Positions 11,292 to 63,461 of a stretch of DNA of 64,000 bases are shown here, piece by piece (the stretch's first letter is position 1; each line of letters opens with the position of its first letter). A model generated the notes under the pieces. That model was not told the origin of the DNA. It did no database searches and was given only the letters and a program-made list of their open reading frames with translations. Origin of the DNA: Bacillales bacterium UBA1188 (GTDB lineage: Bacteria; Bacillota_I; Bacilli_A; Izemoplasmatales; UBA1188). The stretch spans positions 367,949 to 431,948 of the forward strand of contig DBYK01000001.1 of NCBI GenBank assembly GCA_002310135.1, given 5' to 3'. The translations under genes were made by a program, and so were the position numbers.

Positions 11292-11445
11292 ATAAATACC
11301 TCAAATATTGTCTTTTATGTAATTTATGATAACATAAATTAAAATTAAAAGATAGAATAATTATTTAACTAATTACTGCTTCTATATATATTACATAAAC
11401 AACATATCAATCATTAATAATTTCAGCATTTATGCCTATATAAAG

Positions 11446-11468
11446 AAAAAAACCACCATTTCTGATGG
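11446..11468 (-). terminator. rho-independent terminator closing island 1 transcription
   Basis: Minus strand reads GCCATCA-gaaa-TGGTGG followed by TTTTTTT. Confidence 0.55.
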
Positions 11469-11551
11469 CTTTAATAATTAAATACCAAAAACTAAAGCGT
11501 TCTTTATAACTTAATAGTTTTACCAACTAGTATCAATGTATGAATACATTA

Positions 11552-11767
11552 TTAATAGGCTTGGACATTTGTTAATACTTTTAACATATTCTTTATTTTC
11601 TTTTTTAAGCATATATCTAAGGCGTCTTCAAATGTATATCCAGCATATATTTTATCCATTCCGCCTGAGCCATTTATTGCTGATTTATATTTAACAAATT
11701 CATCAAGAAAACTAATTAATTCATTTTTTCTATTTAAAGAAGGCCTCTCATAGTGAAATTTTACCAT
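11552..11767 (-). pseudogene. possible 5' remnant of a COG3981-type GNAT acetyltransferase (71 codons)
   Basis: MVKFHYERPSLNRKNELISFLDEFVKYKSAINGSGGMDKI... resembles the N-terminus of ~175-aa acetyltransferases as I recall them. It terminates early and sits at the island edge. Confidence 0.3.
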
Positions 11768-11768
11768 T

Positions 11769-12623
11769 TTATTCAACTCCCAAATATTCAAGCGAGCTAA
11801 TAAACATTTCTTTATTTATATTATCAATATTGTAATCGGTATTAACGAAAGGAATTATATCTGACTTTAAAGAATTAAAATCTGTTTGTTCAAACCTTTC
11901 TTTTAATAGCTCTTTAATATCATCAATAGTATAATCTGATGTATCTTTATTTAAAGAATACTTTAATTTGTTTTTTAAATAATCCAAATTAATTTTTATA
12001 TTGTGAGAGACATAAAACATATAGTCATAATAATCTCTTCCTTTAGTTCTTTCTCTCCAGTTTCTTGTTATTAATGCATTTAATTTGCTTGCAAATAATG
12101 ATTCATAATTAAAACAATATATATTAGAAAACATTGGGGAATTAAGTAATTTCATTTCATATTTAGCTCCAGGTATAAATACAGTACTAACTTCAATTTT
12201 GATTGAAAGTAGTTTTTCTTTGTTCATATTAATTTTGCCAAAAAATTCACTAGCAATATCATAATGAGATATTTTTATATATCTTCTTCTAACTTCACCA
12301 CTATCATAATCTGATTTTGAATATACTATAGATTTTAAACCATATGATTCAAGTACAGTTATACATTTAGACATGTATTGATCAAAATCTAATTTATAGT
12401 CTTCACTTATTACTTGAAAATCTAAATCTTCACTAAATCTATCTAATCCATGAAAAATTCTTAAGCATGTGCCACCATAAAAGGCGACATTTTTAAAAAA
12501 TGATGTTTGAGCTAATGCATACAATATTATTTTTTGGGATATTTCTCTAAATGCATTTTCAAATTCATATATATTTTTAGGATTACTTAATTTTAAAGAT
12601 TCTAAAATATAATTATTAAACAT
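11769..12623 (-). CDS. abiEii: AbiEii/AbiGii-family nucleotidyltransferase toxin (type IV TA, DUF1814)
   Basis: 284 aa with GGTCLRIFHGLDRFSEDLDF, the family motif. Overlaps the upstream antitoxin gene by 8 nt. Confidence 0.8.
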   Translation of the reverse strand: MFNNYILESLKLSNPKNIYEFENAFREISQKIILYALAQTSFFKNVAFYGGTCLRIFHGLDRFSEDLDFQVISEDYKLDFDQYMSKCITVLESYGLKSIVYSKSDYDSGEVRRRYIKISHYDIASEFFGKINMNKEKLLSIKIEVSTVFIPGAKYEMKLLNSPMFSNIYCFNYESLFASKLNALITRNWRERTKGRDYYDYMFYVSHNIKINLDYLKNKLKYSLNKDTSDYTIDDIKELLKERFEQTDFNSLKSDIIPFVNTDYNIDNINKEMFISSLEYLGVE

Positions 12624-13203
12624 GCTTTGCCTCCAAATATTTTTTTAAAATTTTTAATGTCTTTGATGAATATAACTCACACAATTTAATAATTTTATCC
12701 TTATCTAGTTCATCAAATAATACCTCATCAATTCTTAAATCATCAAACAACAAATCCGTTAATTCTTTCTTATTGTTCCTTGGTGATATTACTGACAATA
12801 AATCAAGCAATGCTTTTTCCTTAGATGCCATCATAACCTTAACACCATCAATTTCAATTTGATTAATATCATATGGATAAGCATTTAAATTAACATCCTG
12901 ATATAAGAATAATCCGAAATTATTTTTATATTCCTTCTTCTTATTTTTTTTAAATGTAGCAGATTTTATAGCATATACTCTTTCAGGTATCATTCCATAA
13001 TAGGCTAAGGCTGTTTCAAAGGAAATATATGATGGTGATAATAAAACATTAGCAATTGTTAAAGGATCTGCATTCTTATTTGTTTCATATAATCCTCTTT
13101 TTAGTTTAATAAGATTATTATTTTTTTCCTCATATGCAATTTTGTTATAAATATTTGAATAATTTCTATATTCATATATTAACATGTCAATAGTCTTAAT
13201 CAT
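12616..13203 (-). CDS. abiEi: AbiEi-family antitoxin / transcriptional regulator
   Basis: Trimmed to ATG 13203 behind AGGAGG. LIKLKRGLYETN-type N-terminal wHTH pattern. Paired with AbiEii. Confidence 0.75.
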   Translation of the reverse strand: MIKTIDMLIYEYRNYSNIYNKIAYEEKNNNLIKLKRGLYETNKNADPLTIANVLLSPSYISFETALAYYGMIPERVYAIKSATFKKNKKKEYKNNFGLFLYQDVNLNAYPYDINQIEIDGVKVMMASKEKALLDLLSVISPRNNKKELTDLLFDDLRIDEVLFDELDKDKIIKLCELYSSKTLKILKKYLEAKHV

Positions 13204-13225
13204 ATTATTTCCTCCTGTTACTACT

Positions 13226-13254
13226 ATTATACAGTAGTTATTGGTGGAAATCAA
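13226..13254 (-). promoter_or_regulatory. abiE promoter (TTGATT-17-TATAAT) with inverted repeat ACTACT-N7-AGTAGT across the -10
   Basis: Minus strand reads TTGATTtccaccaataactactgTATAATagtagtaacAGGAGGaaataatATG. Confidence 0.6.
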
Positions 13255-13262
13255 GCATATTG

Positions 13263-13299
13263 TTAAAAAATAAAAAACTGACACTTTATTGTATCAGTT
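13263..13299 (-). terminator. strong rho-independent terminator insulating the abiE module
   Basis: Minus strand reads AACTGATAC-aataaa-GTGTCAGTT then TTTTTTATTTTTT. A homologous copy lies at 32545-32582. Confidence 0.7.
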
Positions 13300-13490
13300 T
13301 TATTGTTTAAATATGTCTTTATGCAACTCGTTATAATTGCTAAAAAGTGGAAATGATACTCGTTATACTTACATTTTCCTGCTAAAAAGTGGAAACTAGA
13401 GGAAAATTCGTAATCAAGATTTTTTTCGAGAAAAAATAATTATTTAAAGTAATAAGTGTTAAATAATAATTTGATGTAAAATGATATATT

Positions 13491-13531
13491 TTTAGCAAAA
13501 GAAAACACCTTTGATGTAATCGCGGGTGTTT
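13491..13531 (-). terminator. terminator of the MTase/nuclease operon
   Basis: AAACACC-N15-GGTGTTT hairpin 20 nt after the stop, followed on the minus strand by TTTTCTTTTG. Confidence 0.6.
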
Positions 13532-13550
13532 TAAATTCGTAAAGATTTTA

Positions 13551-15119
13551 CTAATTTTTAATAAGAACTCTTCCCAATGGTAACGTTGATTGAATCAAAC
13601 GAGCTATATCAGCCTTTCTAGCATTAATATAAGTTTCTTGTTCATTTTCAAATCTGTTAAAATCAACTGTGTTCATTGATGTTTGAAGTAAAATATCTCT
13701 TGAGATAATCGCATTATATTTTGCAACTTTATGAGTAATATATTGATTTTGAATACTCTTGTTAACTTGTTCACACAACAATATATAATTTCCTATATTA
13801 TCAATTAATTCTTTTTGCAATTCACGATGAGACGGCCATCCATTCCCAGCCCATTCAGAATCTGGATTCTGTGGATAAATATGTTCCAGATTAATAGTAT
13901 TAACATTAACAGTACCTGAAATATTTCGACAGATTACATCTATTATTAGCAATGCTTTTTTTAACCCTCTTGGAGTTGTAATCGCACCCAATTTATCAGT
14001 AAAATCATTTATATTAATTTGCCAAGTAACAACATCAGAATTTATTTTATTAATTAATGAGGAATTAATATCGTCTGGAGTTTTTCCTGTTTTAACAGCA
14101 TCTACAACATCATTTAATAAATATCTAAATGTTGTAGGGCTTCCGCCATTTAGAGTTAATACAATACTCATCATACATAATGGAACCATGACTTTAAGCA
14201 TATAGTCATGATTTGTATTTATATCAATATGCTTCATCGCTAATATATTTAACACATCTAAAAGAGTATTTCTATTAATATAGTTCACAACATATTTTAT
14301 TGGACTATTACCTATAGTATTTAACAGTGCAATTGTATCAACAAAATCTTGATATGTATTTCTGTCTTTTGTTACATTTTCTCTTAAGAATGTAATAATT
14401 TCCATGTTATCGAAATTCTTATCAAAATTGCTTGATTTTAATTTGTAATAACTAATAATAGATTGTCTAACTTCTTTCATTTTAGATGTATCAAATCTTA
14501 TTCCATATGCCAATGAATATTGATCTAATGCAGTTTTTATAACTTCATCTTTTGATAGTGGTTTACCCCCAGTATTGATTTGTTGAAATATATTAAATGC
14601 ATCATCAGCATTACTACATTTTTTCATATAAACATAAATATTATTTTTAATAATTTTTATAAAGTCATTAATTCTATCTATGTTATCACGAATAAAACTA
14701 TAAAAATCTAAATATACCTTTTTAAAAGGTGCTGTTGCATAGTTCGTGAAATGAGTTTCATACTTTTGTTGATTAGCAAAAACATCATATTTTATATCAA
14801 ATAAATCTATGTCGTCAATCACTAATCCATCTTCTGATGCAATAGTCTTAATAACTTTTATCAAATTATTCAAAGTTACTAATCTTTGCTGACCATCTGC
14901 AAACTTAATTCTTCCATCTTCTTCATAATAAATAAAATCTAAAAAATACAATTGTGATTGTTGATTATCTATTACCTTCAATAAATCTTCTTTTAATTGA
15001 ACTATTTCTTTTTCCTTCCAATCATAAAATCTTTGAAAAATAGGTATACCAATTTTTTTATTTTGCCAATCATATAATTTAATGTACTCAGAAGTAATAT
15101 CATTACTATTTATTAACAT
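13551..15119 (-). CDS. DUF262 + DUF1524 protein (GmrSD/SspE/BrxU-type nuclease architecture)
   Basis: N-terminal IPIFQRFYDW, ADGQQRLVTL and FQQINTGGKPLS. C-terminal His-Me finger LEHIYPQ ... NIGNYILLCEQVNKSIQN. Confidence 0.85.
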   Translation of the reverse strand: MLINSNDITSEYIKLYDWQNKKIGIPIFQRFYDWKEKEIVQLKEDLLKVIDNQQSQLYFLDFIYYEEDGRIKFADGQQRLVTLNNLIKVIKTIASEDGLVIDDIDLFDIKYDVFANQQKYETHFTNYATAPFKKVYLDFYSFIRDNIDRINDFIKIIKNNIYVYMKKCSNADDAFNIFQQINTGGKPLSKDEVIKTALDQYSLAYGIRFDTSKMKEVRQSIISYYKLKSSNFDKNFDNMEIITFLRENVTKDRNTYQDFVDTIALLNTIGNSPIKYVVNYINRNTLLDVLNILAMKHIDINTNHDYMLKVMVPLCMMSIVLTLNGGSPTTFRYLLNDVVDAVKTGKTPDDINSSLINKINSDVVTWQININDFTDKLGAITTPRGLKKALLIIDVICRNISGTVNVNTINLEHIYPQNPDSEWAGNGWPSHRELQKELIDNIGNYILLCEQVNKSIQNQYITHKVAKYNAIISRDILLQTSMNTVDFNRFENEQETYINARKADIARLIQSTLPLGRVLIKN

Positions 15120-15133
15120 ATTTTTTCACCCCA

Positions 15134-15511
15134 CTATGCCTTTTGGTAGACGATTCTTTCGCCTTTCTTTAATTCATTAATTTCTTTATATGCATAAATT
15201 CCATCTTGATTAGCTAGACCATCTGGATGAAATGCATTACTACTAAACAAATTACGAATTATAACTCTAAATCGTTCTTGGTTATTTGATGGTAATATTT
15301 CTTGAAAATAAAGTGGAATATTATCTAAATTATCACAAACAATATCATAATAAAGAGGTATAATTGTATCACTATCTATTGGACCATTATATTCAACAAT
15401 TTCTTGTACAGCAATTTCTCTTAAAATAACCCAAAAAGCATCGTGACCAACCTTTTTTGTTGATGCATATTTAAGTCTATGTATTTCTCTTTTTAATACG
15501 TCACCTAACAT
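15134..15511 (-). CDS. hypothetical 125-aa protein, translationally coupled between MTase and nuclease
   Basis: The ATG is 1 nt after the MTase stop, with RBS AGAGGTGA inside the MTase 3' end. I recognise no motif. Confidence 0.6.
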   Translation of the reverse strand: MLGDVLKREIHRLKYASTKKVGHDAFWVILREIAVQEIVEYNGPIDSDTIIPLYYDIVCDNLDNIPLYFQEILPSNNQERFRVIIRNLFSSNAFHPDGLANQDGIYAYKEINELKKGERIVYQKA

Positions 15512-15512
15512 T

Positions 15513-16622
15513 TCAGTTCACCTCTTTCTTTAACAAGAATAAATATTCTTTTACATGTATATCTCTATCTCTTAAGTTTCGACATCCTCTAAATACATTG
15601 TATTTTTTATCAAAAGCTCTTACTTCACCTAGTTGTTCCAACATTTCAACCATTTCTTCATATGATATAAAGCCTTCAGAATTATATGAAATCAAAATAT
15701 ATGTTGCATTTATATCATTGCAAAGCTGTCTCATTGATTCTAACGCCTCGTTTTTTTTGTTATATGTTGATTTATTCCAACCAACTGGAATACCAGAAAC
15801 GGAAGATACATTGTCAGGCTCTTTATAGTTATTTATTAAGTTCAACATAAAGTAATTTGATCCATAAGGGTGTTGGTTATATGGTGGGTCTAAATATGCT
15901 AAATCGACATGTGGCAACTGTTTACATATAACGTTTGAATCGCCTTGAAAAACATGAACATTACAATTGTTTTGACTTAGTATTGGCATTTTCAGTTCTA
16001 TATTTGCAAGAATTCTTTGCAAAGCATTTTTTCCATCGCCACCAAATTGTCCTATATGTGTTTTGGAATTTTTATAGAAGCCTTTAAATACTCCTGAGGT
16101 GTTGTTTTTGGTTGAAGCTTCATATAAAAGAGGACCTAAGAGTAAAGTCTTATAAGGTTCAGGAACTTCTTCAATATATTTTCGAGCAGTATCTAGATAA
16201 TTTGCATTTCTTGTTGTATAAAACACTCTTTCTCCAGGTTGTATATTTTTATCATCCTTTGGTGCATACAATCTAGAAATGAATCCATTTGTTTCTAAAG
16301 GATTATTTTTTAACTTATCAGTTATATCATCAAACCACTTTTTTAACTCGTTTAAATTAATATCACTTTCATTTGCTAAATAGCACCTATTTATCGTATT
16401 ACAATAATCCTCTAAGTCATTAGTATATAAGTTCTTTGAATACTGCTTTAAAAATCTAGAAACAATCCCTGATCCTGCAAAAACATCAAAAGTATCTATT
16501 TTGTCTACATTTAATTCATCGATGACAAGTTTAATTGCACTATCAATAAAATCTAAAAGAGATCTTTTATTTCCTAAATATGTAATTATTTGTTCTGTCA
16601 AATATACATTTCTTTCGGTCAT
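15513..16622 (-). CDS. N6-adenine DNA methyltransferase, D12 (Dam/M.FokI-like) class
   Basis: YLGNKRSLL, DVFAGSG (motif I), YLDPPYN (motif IV) and ILISYNSEG. These are collinear with M.FokI domain motifs as I recall them. Confidence 0.85.
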   Translation of the reverse strand: MTERNVYLTEQIITYLGNKRSLLDFIDSAIKLVIDELNVDKIDTFDVFAGSGIVSRFLKQYSKNLYTNDLEDYCNTINRCYLANESDINLNELKKWFDDITDKLKNNPLETNGFISRLYAPKDDKNIQPGERVFYTTRNANYLDTARKYIEEVPEPYKTLLLGPLLYEASTKNNTSGVFKGFYKNSKTHIGQFGGDGKNALQRILANIELKMPILSQNNCNVHVFQGDSNVICKQLPHVDLAYLDPPYNQHPYGSNYFMLNLINNYKEPDNVSSVSGIPVGWNKSTYNKKNEALESMRQLCNDINATYILISYNSEGFISYEEMVEMLEQLGEVRAFDKKYNVFRGCRNLRDRDIHVKEYLFLLKKEVN

Positions 16623-16796
16623 AATATTCCACGTCTTTCATAAAAAGTTATGAAGGCTTTGAAGTATCAAATTGTATGAATTATTAGAACGAAACGTTTA
16701 TTGATAAAATGTAGGAAAAATGTGGCAAATATCGTGCTTTATATAGAAATTTTGAGAAAAATATAGAATACTATATGAGATTTATTGAAGAATTTT

Positions 16797-16843
16797 AGAG
16801 GTATCAAAACGTATACATTTTTATATTGTTTGTTGATACCTCT
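16797..16843. repeat. inverted repeat AGAGGTATCAA-N25-TTGATACCTCT upstream of the recombinase gene
   Basis: Perfect 11-bp arms read directly from the sequence, 70 nt upstream of the recombinase start. Candidate res/crossover or operator site. Confidence 0.5.
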
Positions 16844-16913
16844 TTTAATTTGCTTTCAAACTTGATAAATCCTCCTTTTTATGGCTTTATATGTAGAAAT
16901 GGAGGTGAGTAAA

Positions 16914-17513
16914 TTGATTTATGCGTATATACGTGTTTCAACTAAACAACAGAAAATCGATAGACAATATGAAGAAATAAAAGCTCTTGATATTGATGAC
17001 AAGCATATCTATATTGATAAAGAATCAGGAAAAGACTTTGATAGAACCAATTATCAAAAATTAATTAAGAAAATAAAAAAAGACGACCTACTAATTGTTA
17101 AATCAATAGATCGTCTAGGTAGAAATTATAAAATGATATTAGATGAATGGGCTTATATAACTAAAACTAAAGAAGCTGATATTAAGGTACTTGATATGCC
17201 ACTTCTAGATACTAGAATTGAAGGAAAAAATCTAGTTGGCAAATTTATAAGTGATATAGTACTTCAAGTATTATCTTTTGTCGCTGAGAATGAAAGAAAT
17301 AATATTAAAGAGCGTCAAGCTGAAGGTATTCGAATTGCAAAAGAAAAAGGTGTTAAGTTTGGTAGGCCAAAAGTATCTACCCCACCTAACACCAATGAAA
17401 TATTAGATAAATATATAAATCATGAAATAACTAATACTGAAGCTGCAGAATTAATTGATGTATCAAGAGGAACATTCTTTAGATTAGTTAAAGAAAGAAA
17501 ACGTATAATATAG
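16914..17513 (+). CDS. small serine recombinase (resolvase/invertase family)
   Basis: IYAYIRVSTKQQKIDRQ catalytic-Ser motif and C-terminal HTH (TNTEAAELIDVSRGTFFRLV). Probable TTG start at 16914 behind GGAGGTG; the track ORF begins at 16881. Confidence 0.85.
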   Translation: MIYAYIRVSTKQQKIDRQYEEIKALDIDDKHIYIDKESGKDFDRTNYQKLIKKIKKDDLLIVKSIDRLGRNYKMILDEWAYITKTKEADIKVLDMPLLDTRIEGKNLVGKFISDIVLQVLSFVAENERNNIKERQAEGIRIAKEKGVKFGRPKVSTPPNTNEILDKYINHEITNTEAAELIDVSRGTFFRLVKERKRII

Positions 17514-17670
17514 CAATTAAAAGCCCACTACATAATTATTTTATGCAGTGAGCTTTCAATTATCTTTGTATTCAGAATATTTCTAATAGACCTCAATATT
17601 CAGCTTTCAAATTTTCAAACGGTTTTACTATTTTTACACAATCTAGTTATGCCATAATAAACTTCATTAT

Positions 17671-18009
17671 TTATAATTCTTCAATCTCTTTTGTGGCTAA
17701 ATCTTCAATATAAAACGTGCCATCGTTTATTTCATCAAGTCTATCTTTAATCTTTGCAAGTAATTCAAGAATCTCTTTTTTATTCTTTTTAGCAGTTGCT
17801 TCATTAAATATACATGGTTGATTGTTGACATCAAACTCGTAGCATTCAGAATACAATTCAGAACATCTTAAATTTAAATCAGGAAGAACTTTATCATCAT
17901 CGATGATGTCTATTCCAGTTAATGGTTCACCTGTTTCAATATCACTAGTCCAAATAGGACCTTGTAAGTAATCAAACATTAATTTGACTTTTTCTTTTTG
18001 ATTTATCAT
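17671..18009 (-). CDS. hypothetical acidic 112-aa protein (third gene of the XRE cassette)
   Basis: ATGA start/stop overlap with the upstream gene. No recognisable motif. Confidence 0.55.
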   Translation of the reverse strand: MINQKEKVKLMFDYLQGPIWTSDIETGEPLTGIDIIDDDKVLPDLNLRCSELYSECYEFDVNNQPCIFNEATAKKNKKEILELLAKIKDRLDEINDGTFYIEDLATKEIEEL

Positions 18010-18359
18010 TTTTTATACCTCGCTTTCAATTTAATGGCTTCTTTTTCCTTTATAGGGTATGCAGATACCATAAAACCATTTGTTCCTACACCAGTTAATA
18101 AATAATATTTACCATTATGTGGGTAATCACCTTTTTTGTATTTCCCACTGTCCCAAACAGGCCAAACTGCATCACCAAAAAATATCATTCCTAATAATTT
18201 CTTATTTGGAGTAATATATTTCCATTCAATTTCTAATCCTTGTTTTTCCATAAAGCCATATGCATCAAACGGAATTACCTTTTCTAATCTTTCTGGATAG
18301 AATTCTTTATTAAGTTCATCAGCCATAATTTCTAATTTTTCTTTTGAATAAAAATACAT
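18006..18359 (-). CDS. hypothetical 117-aa protein; N-terminus resembles ImmA/IrrE-like partners but has no HExxH
   Basis: Its position directly after the XRE gene is typical of ImmA. The sequence lacks any HExxH. Confidence 0.55.
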   Translation of the reverse strand: MYFYSKEKLEIMADELNKEFYPERLEKVIPFDAYGFMEKQGLEIEWKYITPNKKLLGMIFFGDAVWPVWDSGKYKKGDYPHNGKYYLLTGVGTNGFMVSAYPIKEKEAIKLKARYKK

Positions 18360-18369
18360 ATAATGCCAC

Positions 18370-18726
18370 CTACTTTTTGTTCATAATTTCTTCAATAATT
18401 TTAATCCATTCATCATCTCCTAAATTAAGGTCTTTTGCTTTACGTAATGCTACTCTCACATTTTGATTATCGCTAACATATTCTTTTAAATCTTGTGCAA
18501 TCGCATCTTTGCTACTAGCAGCTAAGTCAAATAATTCATTTGCTTCTTGTTGTGATAATTCAAGTACACTTACCATCTTTTCTAAGATTTCTTGTGTTGG
18601 AGCATTTCTTTTTGCTTTTTCAATATCACTCATATATGCTGGAGCAATACCAACTTTATCTGCAAACGCTCTTAATGTAATACCTTTTTCTTGTCTTTTT
18701 TCTTTAATAAATTCGCCGAATATCAT
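18370..18726 (-). CDS. XRE-family helix-turn-helix transcriptional regulator
   Basis: GITLRAFADKVGIAPAYMSDIEKAKRNAPT HTH_3-type motif. RBS GGAGG. Confidence 0.8.
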   Translation of the reverse strand: MIFGEFIKEKRQEKGITLRAFADKVGIAPAYMSDIEKAKRNAPTQEILEKMVSVLELSQQEANELFDLAASSKDAIAQDLKEYVSDNQNVRVALRKAKDLNLGDDEWIKIIEEIMNKK

Positions 18727-18773
18727 AATTCTACCTCCTATAATTATGTTAGCGTGTTAGCATTTACGCTTAC

Positions 18774-18802
18774 ATTATATCAAATTGAAATAGATTTGTC
18801 AA
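18774..18802 (-). promoter_or_regulatory. consensus sigma-A promoter TTGACA-17-TATAAT of the XRE cassette
   Basis: Minus strand reads TTGACAaatctatttcaatttgaTATAAT. An imperfect inverted repeat TTAGCGT-N10-ACGCTTA lies at 18749-18772, between the -10 and the RBS. Confidence 0.7.
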
Positions 18803-18861
18803 TTATTAGGCTTTAAAATATCTTTTTTTATCAAATGTTATTAAATAATAGCATCTGAAAT

Positions 18862-18895
18862 AAAAAAATCTCTATTATTCTTAGAATAATAGAGA
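18862..18895 (-). terminator. rho-independent terminator of the nnr-gltX-tRNA unit
   Basis: Perfect 12-bp stem TCTCTATTATTC-tta-GAATAATAGAGA, followed on the minus strand by TTTTTTT. Confidence 0.8.
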
Positions 18896-18907
18896 GTATG
18901 TTCTTAA

Positions 18908-18984
18908 TGGTAGCTCAGACGGGTTTCGAACCCGTGAATGCAGCCTTGAGAGGGCTGTGAGTTAGACCACTTCTCCACTGAGCC
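18908..18984 (-). tRNA. tRNA with anticodon CUC (Glu, hand-folded), CCA encoded
   Basis: GGCTCAG TG GAGAAGTGGTCTAACTC A CAGCC CTCTCAA GGCTG CATTC ACGGG TTCGAAA CCCGT CTGAGCT A CCA. G1-U72 wobble. Begins 3 nt after the gltX stop. Confidence 0.85.
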
Positions 18985-18987
18985 ATA

Positions 18988-20655
18988 TTAAGGTAACAAA
19001 TTAGTTACCTTTTTTATTCTTGATTCAATTTTTTGTTTTCCTAAAATCTTTTCAACATAGTATAGATTTGGAGAACTTCTTCTGCCAGTTAGGGTGATTC
19101 TTATTATTTCTGATGCATCACCTATAGTTCCTTGATAGAAATCAGGATTTTCTCTCATTTCCTTTTTATTTTGAGCGAAACCAAGAGGTTTCATAACTGA
19201 CTTAAGATTATTAAACCATTCTTCTTCGTTTAAATCAAGACCTAAATTATCTAAATGATTTAATAGAACTTTATCGATTATTTCTTTTGAGAATTTAGGA
19301 TTAAATTCAAATATATTATTTTTAATAATATTTTCATAATAATCATCATAGAAGAATGAAATGAATGGAATGATATCTTCAAATTTAGTATAGTCTTTTC
19401 TTGGGTTTTCTTTTTCTCTTTCTATGTTGATTATAGATTCAAAATAATCTCTATCTCTTAATATTAATTGTTCGAGTTCGCTGTTGTATGTATGAGCGTA
19501 AGATAACACTTGATCTGTGAATTCTTTTTTATTTAATCTTGATAATCTTTCTTTAGAGATATTATTTATTTTTTCTATATCGAAGAGCGCACCATCAACA
19601 CTGAATTTCTCAAAAGAAAAATTGAAATTATAGATATCGTCATCCATATGTTCTAATCTCCACTCTTCAAAATTAGAATTAGCGAGAGTAAATAAATATT
19701 CAATTAAAGCTTGTTTAGGGTAACCTGATTCTAAAAAGAATGATACCGCAGCCTCTTTATCTAATCTTTTAGATAATTTTCTTCTTTTGCCTTCATCTAA
19801 TTTCATTATTACTGGAAGATGGGCATATAATGGGGCCTCCCAGCCCATTCTTTCAAATAATTCTATATGAATAGGTAAACTTGAAAGCCATTCTTCTCCT
19901 CTTGTGACATGAGTAGTTCTCATAAAGTGATCATCACAAAGATGAGCGAAATGATAAGTTGGAAGACCATCAGATTTTAAAATAACTATGTGTTGATCGT
20001 TTTCAGTTAATTCAAGATCCCCTTTAATTAAATCATGAACTTTAATCTTATTCTGGTGACTTCCTTTAGATCTAAATCTTATTACATATTTATCTCCGTT
20101 TTGAATTCTATTAATAGCTTCAAGAGGGGTTAAGAAAGAACTAAGCGCATATTTCCCATAACAGCCTGGATTTTCTTTGTTCATTTCTTGTTTTTTTCTT
20201 ATTTCATTAAGTTCATCTTCAGATAAGAAACAAGGATATGCATCCCCTCTTCTTATGAGCTCTTTAATCACAGTATTATAAATCATAAATCTTTGAGATT
20301 GTTTATATGGACCATATTCACCTTTTTCATATGTTCCATAATAACCTTCAGTTGGAACTACATCAAATAAAGATAACTCTTTAAGTAATCTTTCTCCTGA
20401 ACCTTCTATTTCTCTTTTTGTATCAGTATCTTCAAGTCTTAAAATAAATACACCGTCTGTTTGTTTTTGGAACTTCTTGCAAACTAGCGCAGTAAAAAGA
20501 CTGCCAGAATGAAGAAATCCTGTAGGAGATGGTGCAAATCTACATACTATGGCGCCATCTTTAAGATTTCTTTTTGGATATCTTTTTTCTAAATCTTCTA
20601 TTGTTTCATCTACATCTTTAAATATTAAATCCGCTAATCTTTCTAAATCTGTCAT
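18988..20655 (-). CDS. gltX: glutamate--tRNA ligase, long (555-aa) form
   Basis: RFAPSPTGFLHSGSLFTALV (HIGH region), RLEDTDTKRE and KLSKR (KMSKS). Confidence 0.85.
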   Translation of the reverse strand: MTDLERLADLIFKDVDETIEDLEKRYPKRNLKDGAIVCRFAPSPTGFLHSGSLFTALVCKKFQKQTDGVFILRLEDTDTKREIEGSGERLLKELSLFDVVPTEGYYGTYEKGEYGPYKQSQRFMIYNTVIKELIRRGDAYPCFLSEDELNEIRKKQEMNKENPGCYGKYALSSFLTPLEAINRIQNGDKYVIRFRSKGSHQNKIKVHDLIKGDLELTENDQHIVILKSDGLPTYHFAHLCDDHFMRTTHVTRGEEWLSSLPIHIELFERMGWEAPLYAHLPVIMKLDEGKRRKLSKRLDKEAAVSFFLESGYPKQALIEYLFTLANSNFEEWRLEHMDDDIYNFNFSFEKFSVDGALFDIEKINNISKERLSRLNKKEFTDQVLSYAHTYNSELEQLILRDRDYFESIINIEREKENPRKDYTKFEDIIPFISFFYDDYYENIIKNNIFEFNPKFSKEIIDKVLLNHLDNLGLDLNEEEWFNNLKSVMKPLGFAQNKKEMRENPDFYQGTIGDASEIIRITLTGRRSSPNLYYVEKILGKQKIESRIKKVTNLLP

Positions 20656-22278: not shown

Positions 22279-22353
22279 AGGACCGTAGCCAAGTGGTTAA
22301 GGCAATGGACTTTGACTCCATCATCGAAGGTTCGAATCCTTCCGGCCCTGCCA
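22279..22353 (+). tRNA. tRNA-Gln (UUG)
   Basis: AGGACCG TA GCCAAGTGGTTAAGGC A ATGGA CTTTGAC TCCAT CATC GAAGG TTCGAAT CCTTC CGGCCCT G CCA. One A4-C69 mismatch. Confidence 0.9.
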
Positions 22354-22404
22354 ATATTTTATACCTATGGTCGATTTAAACATCGACTATATTTATAAAA
22401 TAAT

Positions 22405-22489
22405 GCGGGTGTGGCGAAACTGGCAGACGCGCAAGATTTAGGTTCTTGTACCGCAAGGCGTGCAGGTTCAAGTCCTGTCACCCGCACCA
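22405..22489 (+). tRNA. tRNA-Leu (UAG), long variable arm
   Basis: Acceptor GCGGGTG/CACCCGC, anticodon loop TTTAGGT, variable arm TACCGCAAGGCGT, CCA encoded. Confidence 0.9.
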
Positions 22490-37367: not shown

Positions 37368-37452
37368 TGGTGGAAAGAGATGGATTCGAACCATCGAACT
37401 CGTAGAGAGTGGATTTACAGTCCACCGCGTTTAGCCTCTTCGCTATCTTTCC
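37368..37452 (-). tRNA. tRNA-Tyr (GUA), long variable arm
   Basis: Acceptor GGAAAGA/TCTTTCC, anticodon arm GTGGA-CTGTAAA-TCCAC, variable arm TCTCTACGAGTTC, T arm GATGG-TTCGAAT-CCATC, A73, CCA. Confidence 0.9.
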
Positions 37453-63315: not shown

Positions 63316-63461
63316 AAAAGTGTTCTCCTATAAAAATAAAACCTCTTTCCGTGAGAAAGAGGAAAAATAATACTATTATCCAATCAAATCTCAGCGGGAA
63401 ATTAAGTGCTCAAGCACACCAGCTATCTTAGATATATATTCTTTTTTTATTGTTTCTTTAA
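63316..63461 (-). promoter_or_regulatory. ribosomal protein L10 leader (autoregulatory attenuator)
   Basis: Intergenic rplA-rplJ RNA with structured stems (GTGCTTGAGCAC). A terminator, CCTCTTTC-tcac-GGAAAGAGG + TTTTATTTTT (63332-63362), lies just before the rplJ RBS, as in the Firmicute L10 leader. Confidence 0.55.

Follow-up and report, generated by a model that had tools for sequence, protein, structure and literature searches.

A strictly conserved operon of an adenine methyltransferase, a small orphan protein and a GmrSD-fold nuclease as a putative restriction–modification variant

GmrSD, BrxU and HEC-06 are single-gene, modification-dependent nucleases that come without a cognate methyltransferase (MTase), and a preliminary description of the DNA analyzed here had stated that enzymes of this fold normally need no cognate MTase. 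SspE and DndI, however, rely on a cognate mark of the host, namely phosphorothioation (PMC11662687). In the IscS-DndBCDE-DndI system, the DUF262-DUF1524 nuclease DndI damages host DNA when the phosphorothioate mark is missing, which amounts to restriction–modification logic (PMC11662687). Given the SspE/DndI precedent, mark-dependent logic is therefore already known, with only a methyl mark being new. The subject of this work is a three-gene operon in a 64-kb stretch of Bacillales bacterium UBA1188 DNA (contig DBYK01000001.1, positions 367,949 to 431,948; hereafter the window), encoding an MTase for N6-methyladenine (m6A), a 125-amino-acid (aa) small protein and a 522-aa GmrSD-fold nuclease. 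We infer the function of this trio, for which the most fitting interpretation is a novel form of restriction–modification (R-M) built on a GmrSD-fold nuclease together with a small protein of a new family.

The operon and its probable end comprise the following features (window coordinates):

16622..15513, minus strand: D12 (alpha) class N6-adenine DNA MTase, 369 aa, first gene of the operon
15511..15134, minus strand: 125-aa small protein, an open reading frame (ORF) of an orphan family that matches none
15119..13551, minus strand: 522-aa nuclease with GmrSD_N and GmrSD_C domains (Pfam)
13497..13532, minus strand: hairpin with U-run, probable intrinsic terminator (RNA folding)

The three ORFs, all on the minus strand, agree in position with the preliminary description, and translation bears out the motifs it had listed, i.e., DVFAGSG followed by YLDPPYN in the MTase, and IPIFQRFYDW, DGQQRL, EHIYPQ and NIGNYILLCEQVNKSIQN in the 522-aa ORF, in which Pfam recognizes GmrSD_N and GmrSD_C. 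The genes are tightly spaced, with 1 nt between MTase and small gene and 14 nt between small gene and nuclease. Specifically, the 3′ end of the MTase gene reads GAG GTG AAC TGA and is followed by a single base and the small-gene ATG, with the ribosome-binding site (RBS) of the small gene (GAGGTG) located within the MTase coding sequence, just as had been claimed for this junction. The small gene ends in TAG, after which 14 nt containing GGGGTGA precede the nuclease ATG. As to the terminator that had been said to close the operon, a hairpin (~13532–13502) followed by CUUUU is indeed present directly 3′ of the nuclease stop codon, but it is weak (–10 kcal/mol, z = –2.3 vs. shuffles). It is also absent from the output of the consensus scan of the window, which overlooked it because the hairpin loop is long and structured. 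Its role as operon terminator is plausible but weak.

This trio recurs in the order MTase, small gene, nuclease in every locus recovered, wherever the contig permits, in a census of 65 sources representing ~43 lineages (<90% identity). A search centered on the small protein in public assemblies and species-representative genomes yielded 32 loci (L001–L032), all 32 with the fixed order where the contig reaches. A nuclease-centered metagenome scan yielded 29 loci with a nuclease of at least 42% identity; the small gene was found upstream in 27 of the 27 with upstream DNA, and the MTase in all those with enough upstream sequence. Co-conservation, which the preliminary description had named as a test of its proposal, thus held without exception, both from the small protein and independently from the nuclease. 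The next-nearest GmrSD relatives (21–25% identity) occur without the small gene and without the MTase. Moreover, the gaps in 61 related loci range from –14 to +9 nt between MTase and small gene and from –17 to +18 nt between small gene and nuclease, and because the same tight spacing returns in all of these, the arrangement is not due to chance. Which genes are present, their order, their close coupling and the fact that they are always inherited together are directly observed, and the trio is a real, strictly conserved unit.

The architecture is also kept in distant trios, i.e., two with a 221-aa small protein carrying a Cys-rich tail (L035/L036) and one in which the nuclease has an extra C-terminal DUF4357 (L034). 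In one lineage, two extra genes of 137 and 110 aa stand between small gene and nuclease (L078, 5459–6201; L079, 1475–2217), the product of the former being membrane-like as judged by its hydrophobic N-terminus; a 100-aa gene overlaps the nuclease stop codon in these same two loci. The hosts are metagenome-assembled genomes from gut and rumen, and belong to Bacilli, Acholeplasmatales, Erysipelotrichaceae, Christensenellaceae and Clostridia. No small-protein homologs were found among PLSDB plasmids, INPHARED phages or IMG/VR, and no nuclease homologs in the plasmid collection. Two loci (L004 and L023) carry a broken nuclease gene beside an intact MTase gene. In a further locus (L009) the MTase gene is frameshifted at ~5521 by the loss of one A from an A7 run, with small gene and nuclease intact; besides this indel, the locus differs from L011 by one substitution in ~3.3 kb, and the frameshift may be either real slippage or an assembly artefact. 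L009 was not accepted as demonstrating that the nuclease does no harm when the MTase is missing, as the lesion is a single-base loss from an A7 run in a metagenome assembly that is otherwise near-identical to L011.

The nuclease shows both hallmarks of the GmrSD family, i.e., a DUF262 domain with (I/V)PxFQR and DGQQR motifs and a DUF1524 His-Me finger (Pfam GmrSD_N 1.7e-20, GmrSD_C 3.8e-12). In its N-terminal ParB-like DUF262 part, the motifs PIFQRFY.W, (A)DGQQR and NTGGKPL were identified, and in the C-terminal DUF1524 His-Me finger NLEHIYPQ, NIGN and VNK..N. Every one of its catalytic motifs is retained unchanged by 21 homologs with identities as low as 47%, and both catalytic centers are under selection. 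The AlphaFold2 (AF2) model (pLDDT 87.4) matched GmrSD-fold structures only in the PDB:

DndI, PDB 9JFL: Foldseek E-value 1.3e-10, best match
SspE, PDB 7DRR: Foldseek E-value 3.6e-6, second-best match
BrxU, PDB 7P9M: Foldseek E-value 4.3e-5

The likeness to DndI extends beyond the fold, since DndI likewise joins a DUF262 domain (with its DGQQR NTPase motif) to a DUF1524 His-Me nuclease and is likewise encoded beside host DNA-modification genes. Its mark, however, is a backbone phosphorothioation laid down by the Dnd proteins, whereas that of the trio would be m6A made by a single MTase; the DndI system moreover comes without a small partner, and the two nucleases share only ~15% sequence identity. 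SspE (SspABCD-SspE; PDB 7DRR, 7DRS, 6JIV) is a GmrSD-fold NTPase/nickase that also decides between self and non-self via a host-made mark. It becomes active when it senses phosphorothioate and does no harm where that mark is missing, and with ~770 aa it works as a single protein without a methyltransferase or small partner, both of which the trio has. No dnd or ssp phosphorothioation genes were found among the window proteins, the neighbors of the trio being AbiEi/AbiEii, a serine recombinase and a helix-turn-helix (HTH) operon; the trio is therefore not a Dnd or Ssp system. GmrSD, BrxU and HEC-06 share both Pfam domains and the catalytic motifs with the trio nuclease, but whereas these act alone without a cognate modification gene, nucleases of the trio clade (at least 42% identity) invariably have a small gene and a D12 MTase gene in front of them, wherever the contig allows. 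PADLOC gave partial matches only, of which HEC-06 was best (8.1e-26), followed by Orf5 profiles (5e-22), which may correspond to DndI, and weakly by SspE (1e-13); the HEC-06 match falls into two separate stretches (20–98 and a C-terminal piece) against a 562-position profile. The strict genetic linkage to an m6A MTase suggests that the function of the nuclease may depend on a DNA mark of host origin.

The same MTase family occurs in classical type II R-M loci (L037–L039), in which an MTase that is 66–68% identical over its whole length precedes the restriction (R) gene, with overlapping or abutting genes. In these loci the R component is a 233-aa PD-(D/E)XK EcoRI-like enzyme, whereas in the window it is the 125-aa protein together with an NTPase-linked His-Me nuclease. 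Where a canonical type II system has a single NTP-independent restriction endonuclease (REase), the R slot of the trio holds two genes, one for an orphan-fold protein and one for a predicted DUF262 NTPase linked to a His-Me nuclease, and the trio is therefore not a canonical type II R-M system. A precedent for the recruitment of a family known from type IV restriction into modification-protected R-M is an McrBC-like, NTP-dependent nuclease that acts on its unmodified site and comes with cognate MTases (PMC12707154). The nuclease families are unrelated (AAA+ McrB plus McrC vs. ParB-like plus His-Me). Systems of this kind are of the LlaJI type, with two MTases and nothing that corresponds to the small protein of the trio.

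No description of a system combining an m6A MTase with DUF262/DUF1524 was found in the literature, coverage of which was incomplete, so that an earlier description is possible. The matches were stand-alone type IV enzymes and phosphorothioate systems only, besides the Menshen paper, which speculates that genomes without modification might be the targets of ParB-DUF262 domains. The proposal that the trio is a composite missing from standard catalogues agrees with PADLOC, which matched single proteins only (MTase_II, and partially HEC-06, Orf5 and SspE).

The MTase belongs to a very large family (at least 8000 matches) and is covered by Pfam MethyltransfD12 over residues 15–327 (6.6e-19) and by PADLOC MTase_II PDLC03257 over its full length (5.4e-119). 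As is typical of type II systems, it combines S-adenosylmethionine (SAM)-binding and catalytic motifs (DVFAGSG, DPPYN) with an adjoining nuclease gene. Two MTases that are 66–68% identical to that of the window (P0352 and P0363) are followed by a 233-aa EcoRI-family REase in abutting or overlapping genes, and this pairing with ~67% identical MTases occurs in two unrelated genomic contexts. The similarity between the MTases runs through the putative target-recognition region (residues 76–235), and the 233-aa REase matches EcoRI (8e-12, including the GNAIER recognition motif) as well as PADLOC REase_II (3e-22). The trio MTases of the same clade (clade A) are 57–79% identical to one another, and because they diverge among themselves as much or more, the EcoRI-linked MTases are nested among them. 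Since MTases of 67% identity precede an EcoRI-family REase, small gene and nuclease therefore fill the slot of a type II R gene.

In all, the trio MTases fall into two clades with ~50% mutual identity (~43% in the putative recognition region). Pairwise identities of small protein and nuclease correlate with r = 0.68, and those of each with the MTase with 0.39 and 0.45, respectively. Moreover, L001 and L003 combine a clade-B MTase with a small protein (73%) and nuclease (64%) like those of the window. The two genes behind the MTase thus move together as one unit, with the MTase being exchangeable. An Xre-type HTH gene is located directly upstream of the MTase gene in 28 fetched loci, i.e., in about half of the relatives, either co-directionally (~67 aa; 14 loci) or divergently (48–94 aa; 14 loci).

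For the 125-aa protein, the preliminary description had recognized no motif, and profile searches and structure prediction led to the same outcome. No match was found in Pfam, PADLOC, NCBIfam, PHROGs or PDB sequences, and its AF2 model (pLDDT 95.6), consisting of five helices and a C-terminal beta-hairpin, has no significant Foldseek neighbor in PDB or BFVD. There are 259 close homologs, and 30 cluster representatives among 1.84 billion proteins; across 30 sequences, 38 columns are invariant, with the signature RNLFSSNAFHPDGLANQ. The idea of a hidden REase was rejected, as the model lacks PD-(D/E)XK, HNH and GIY-YIG features and the protein co-evolves with the nuclease.

Two distant homologs of ~320 aa (P0143 and P0150) carry the small-protein domain N-terminally to an HNH_2 nuclease. 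The HNH half of P0143 is related to that of a protein from Paenibacillus with the McrB-N reader domain at its N-terminus, and mainly because the small-protein domain thus sits where DNA-reader domains sit in related nucleases, the 125-aa protein is regarded as a putative reader, or specificity subunit or adaptor, for the trio nuclease. The gene for P0143 itself (320 aa) immediately follows a complete trio and is in turn followed by that for a GIY-YIG/SLFN-type helicase. This array (L033, 1941–9051) comprises, in the same orientation, the trio, P0143, a 583-aa protein with GIY-YIG and an SLFN-group-3 helicase, and a 440-aa protein, and it may represent a larger composite system with one common MTase.

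As the leading explanation, to which we grant about an even chance, the trio would be an R-M-like defense operon in which m6A protects the host, and small protein and GmrSD-fold nuclease attack unmarked DNA. The genes would be transcribed in the order MTase (M), small gene (S) and nuclease (R). The D12 MTase would place m6A on a short host DNA sequence, perhaps one containing AATT, since its closest relatives outside the trio partner EcoRI-family enzymes. The 125-aa protein would bind the nuclease and provide the recognition step, reading either the site itself or whether it is methylated. The ParB-like NTPase of the nuclease (DGQQR) would act as a nucleotide-driven switch, with the His-Me finger nicking or cutting unmarked DNA and host DNA being spared via methylation. 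Translation in the order M, S, R could help methylation to stay ahead of restriction, and in many relatives the Xre-type HTH regulator could add control resembling that of a controller protein (C-protein).

An R-M reading of this kind had already been put forward in the preliminary description; the EcoRI-family REase in the same slot and the upstream HTH genes favor it, whereas the restriction of unmethylated DNA is a step that we infer. It is the best-supported reading, drawing on the genetic linkage, the swap in the R slot, the HTH regulators, the position of M as first gene, the co-variation of S and R, the HNH-fused homologs of the small protein, the conserved nuclease motifs, the DndI/SspE precedent, and the decay of the nuclease beside an intact MTase. 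With a somewhat less than even chance, the trio would moreover be the first system to do with methylation what the phosphorothioate-coupled GmrSD-fold systems do. It would then represent a new R-M architecture, i.e., an m6A mark combined with a two-part R in which a novel-fold small reader senses the mark or its absence and controls a ParB-type NTPase/His-Me nuclease that destroys unmarked DNA, so far seen only in gut Bacillota and Mollicutes-like lineages.

Several observations weigh against such an R-M function. The stand-alone enzymes GmrSD, BrxU and HEC-06 are modification-dependent, which is the opposite logic, and in L009 a frameshifted MTase (a possible artefact) accompanies small and nuclease genes that are both intact. 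Exchange of the MTase has occurred across clades of ~50% identity without a matching change of S and R, which is awkward for a sequence-specific S/R reader unless the clades share their specificity or the reader senses m6A itself. The isoelectric point (pI) of the small protein ranges from 5.1 to 9.8 among homologs and is not consistently basic, and no DNA-binding fold could be assigned to it in the PDB and BFVD structure searches. Finally, neither AATT (observed/expected ratio of 0.90) nor GAATTC (0.95) is notably depleted in the 64-kb window.

Some of these observations would be accommodated if the small protein/nuclease complex had to sense host m6A in order to drive its NTPase cycle, release self DNA and nick foreign DNA, and were inert without the MTase. 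SspE, itself DUF262-DUF1524 and the second-best fold match, behaves in this way with phosphorothioate and is harmless in mark-free cells (PMC11662687). Such a mechanism would explain a viable MTase frameshift in L009, and also the tolerated swap of MTase clades, because an m6A reader need not match the sequence context. Nevertheless, we deem it unlikely, as the best structural match is not SspE but DndI, which is toxic without its mark, SspE profiles are matched weakly and only in part (1e-13), and an EcoRI-family REase in the same slot fits a logic of nuclease activity blocked by methylation more simply.

An improbable alternative is type IV restriction, in which small protein and nuclease would cut phage DNA with modified bases, and the MTase would be functionally separate, i.e., orphan or epigenetic, or a shield against another system. 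All characterized stand-alone members of the GmrSD family (GmrSD, BrxU and HEC-06) work in a modification-dependent manner, HEC-06 provides the best (though partial) PADLOC profile for the nuclease (8e-26), the small-protein-like domain of P0143 takes the place of the modified-base reader McrB-N in related HNH enzymes, and L009 apparently tolerates a frameshifted MTase. An independent MTase would, however, not be expected to accompany the other two genes invariably across ~43 lineages, always in one order and with (near-)overlapping genes. Moreover, within the type II R-M family to which the MTase belongs, its close relatives are partnered by a classical REase, and the HTH regulator ahead of the MTase in about half of the loci would have no obvious need. 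Very unlikely is a toxin-antitoxin or abortive-infection module, in which the small protein would inhibit the nuclease until it is released or degraded on infection, with the MTase as an accessory: the small gene is immediately upstream of the nuclease, often overlaps it and co-evolves with it, the cassette lies in a defense island beside AbiEi/AbiEii, and the small protein of the window is mildly acidic (pI 5.6), but this charge is not conserved (pI 5.1–9.8), homologs of the domain occur in cis with HNH nucleases, an unusual arrangement for an inhibitor, and both the obligatory MTase and the substitution by an EcoRI-family REase would be left unexplained.

If the trio is indeed an R-M-like operon that restricts unmarked DNA, the GmrSD fold would also have been recruited to methylation-protected restriction, extending the phosphorothioate cases of DndI and SspE. 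Nucleases of the GmrSD family are usually annotated automatically as type IV and modification-dependent, and pipelines would then mislabel systems of this type. The small protein is a new family and, if it reads methylation or sequence, would constitute a new DNA-reader module that also occurs fused to HNH. An MTase family that comes with either an EcoRI-like REase or a two-gene R unit offers a natural experiment on the exchange of R modules. The trio, which is not a PADLOC system and is common in gut metagenomes, would enlarge the defense catalogue for poorly cultured gut lineages.

Upstream of the operon, the following features were identified:

16662..16707, minus strand: promoter-like site upstream of the MTase gene (TTATCA, 16 nt, AATAAT; scan match 16707..16680)
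16797..16843, no strand assigned: inverted repeat with perfect 11-nt arms (AGAGGTATCAA, 25 nt, TTGATACCTCT), located between the recombinase and MTase genes
16881..17513, plus strand: serine recombinase (resolvase/invertase), divergent neighbor of the operon (Pfam Resolvase 7.6e-27)

The promoter-like site is embedded in a block (AATAATTCATACAATTTGATACTT) that is conserved in L041 and L008–L011, where it precedes an HTH regulator gene. In L041, the closest relative of the window, this HTH gene is situated between the same block and the MTase gene. The 258-bp recombinase–MTase intergenic region of the window contains no HTH ORF, and thus no C-protein candidate; the operon of the window has lost, or never had, an HTH regulator.

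The arms of the inverted repeat change compensatingly in L008 (GAAGTAC...GTACTTC) and L041, and in both of these loci an inverted repeat overlaps the RBS of the HTH gene. The 11-nt repeat of the window is a candidate recombinase (res-like) or operator site that may be common to the divergent promoters. The idea of an invertible promoter (phase variation), to which the divergent invertase-like recombinase had given rise, was discarded, since the arms of the only strong inverted repeat are 25 nt apart and hence too close, which fits a binding site better. The recombinase also matches the NCBIfam Mpi-family invertase profile (7.7e-22), below the cutoff of that profile, and its homologs (57–86% identity) are likewise the divergent neighbor of the operon at 15 further fetched loci, making it a recurrent but not universal neighbor.

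The surroundings of the trio form a low-GC island (11400–18990; GC 0.24–0.28 vs. 0.30–0.35 in the flanks) with a SpoIIE-like phosphatase/STAS pair on one side and a glutamyl-tRNA-synthetase-like gene on the other, bounded by tRNA-Glu(ctc) (18908–18984, minus strand), and it looks like a tRNA-adjacent defense islet. Immediately downstream of the trio (11769–13284, minus strand), overlapping genes encode the AbiEi (222 aa, PADLOC 2.1e-57) and AbiEii (284 aa, 1e-71) proteins of a type IV toxin-antitoxin system, which also adjoin the trio in L040, whose MTase is identical to that of the window, but not in other trio loci. The region upstream of AbiEi contains two identical copies of a 16-nt direct repeat, TGCTAAAAAGTGGAAA, at a distance of 42 bp (13338–13395), which may be an autoregulatory operator of AbiEi.

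On the other side of the recombinase, an operon (17671–18802, minus strand) encodes an Xre HTH protein (118 aa, 18726..18370), followed by overlapping genes for 117-aa and 112-aa proteins. Its promoter is a perfect TTGACA-17-TATAAT with TG extension (18802..18774), and the HTH protein has weak PADLOC matches to capH and controller-protein profiles.

Palindrome avoidance in the 64-kb window was considered as a route to the target site and proved uninformative for the trio MTase. The palindromes that are depleted, i.e., GATC (observed/expected 0.42; 99 observed vs. 235 expected) and CATG (0.66), suggest long-term exposure of the lineage to GATC- and CATG-specific restriction, apparently unrelated to the trio. 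Elsewhere in the window, an L10 leader (Rfam RF00557, 52.5 bits; 63326–63450, minus strand) and three further tRNA genes (22279–22486, plus strand; 37371–37452, minus strand) were identified.

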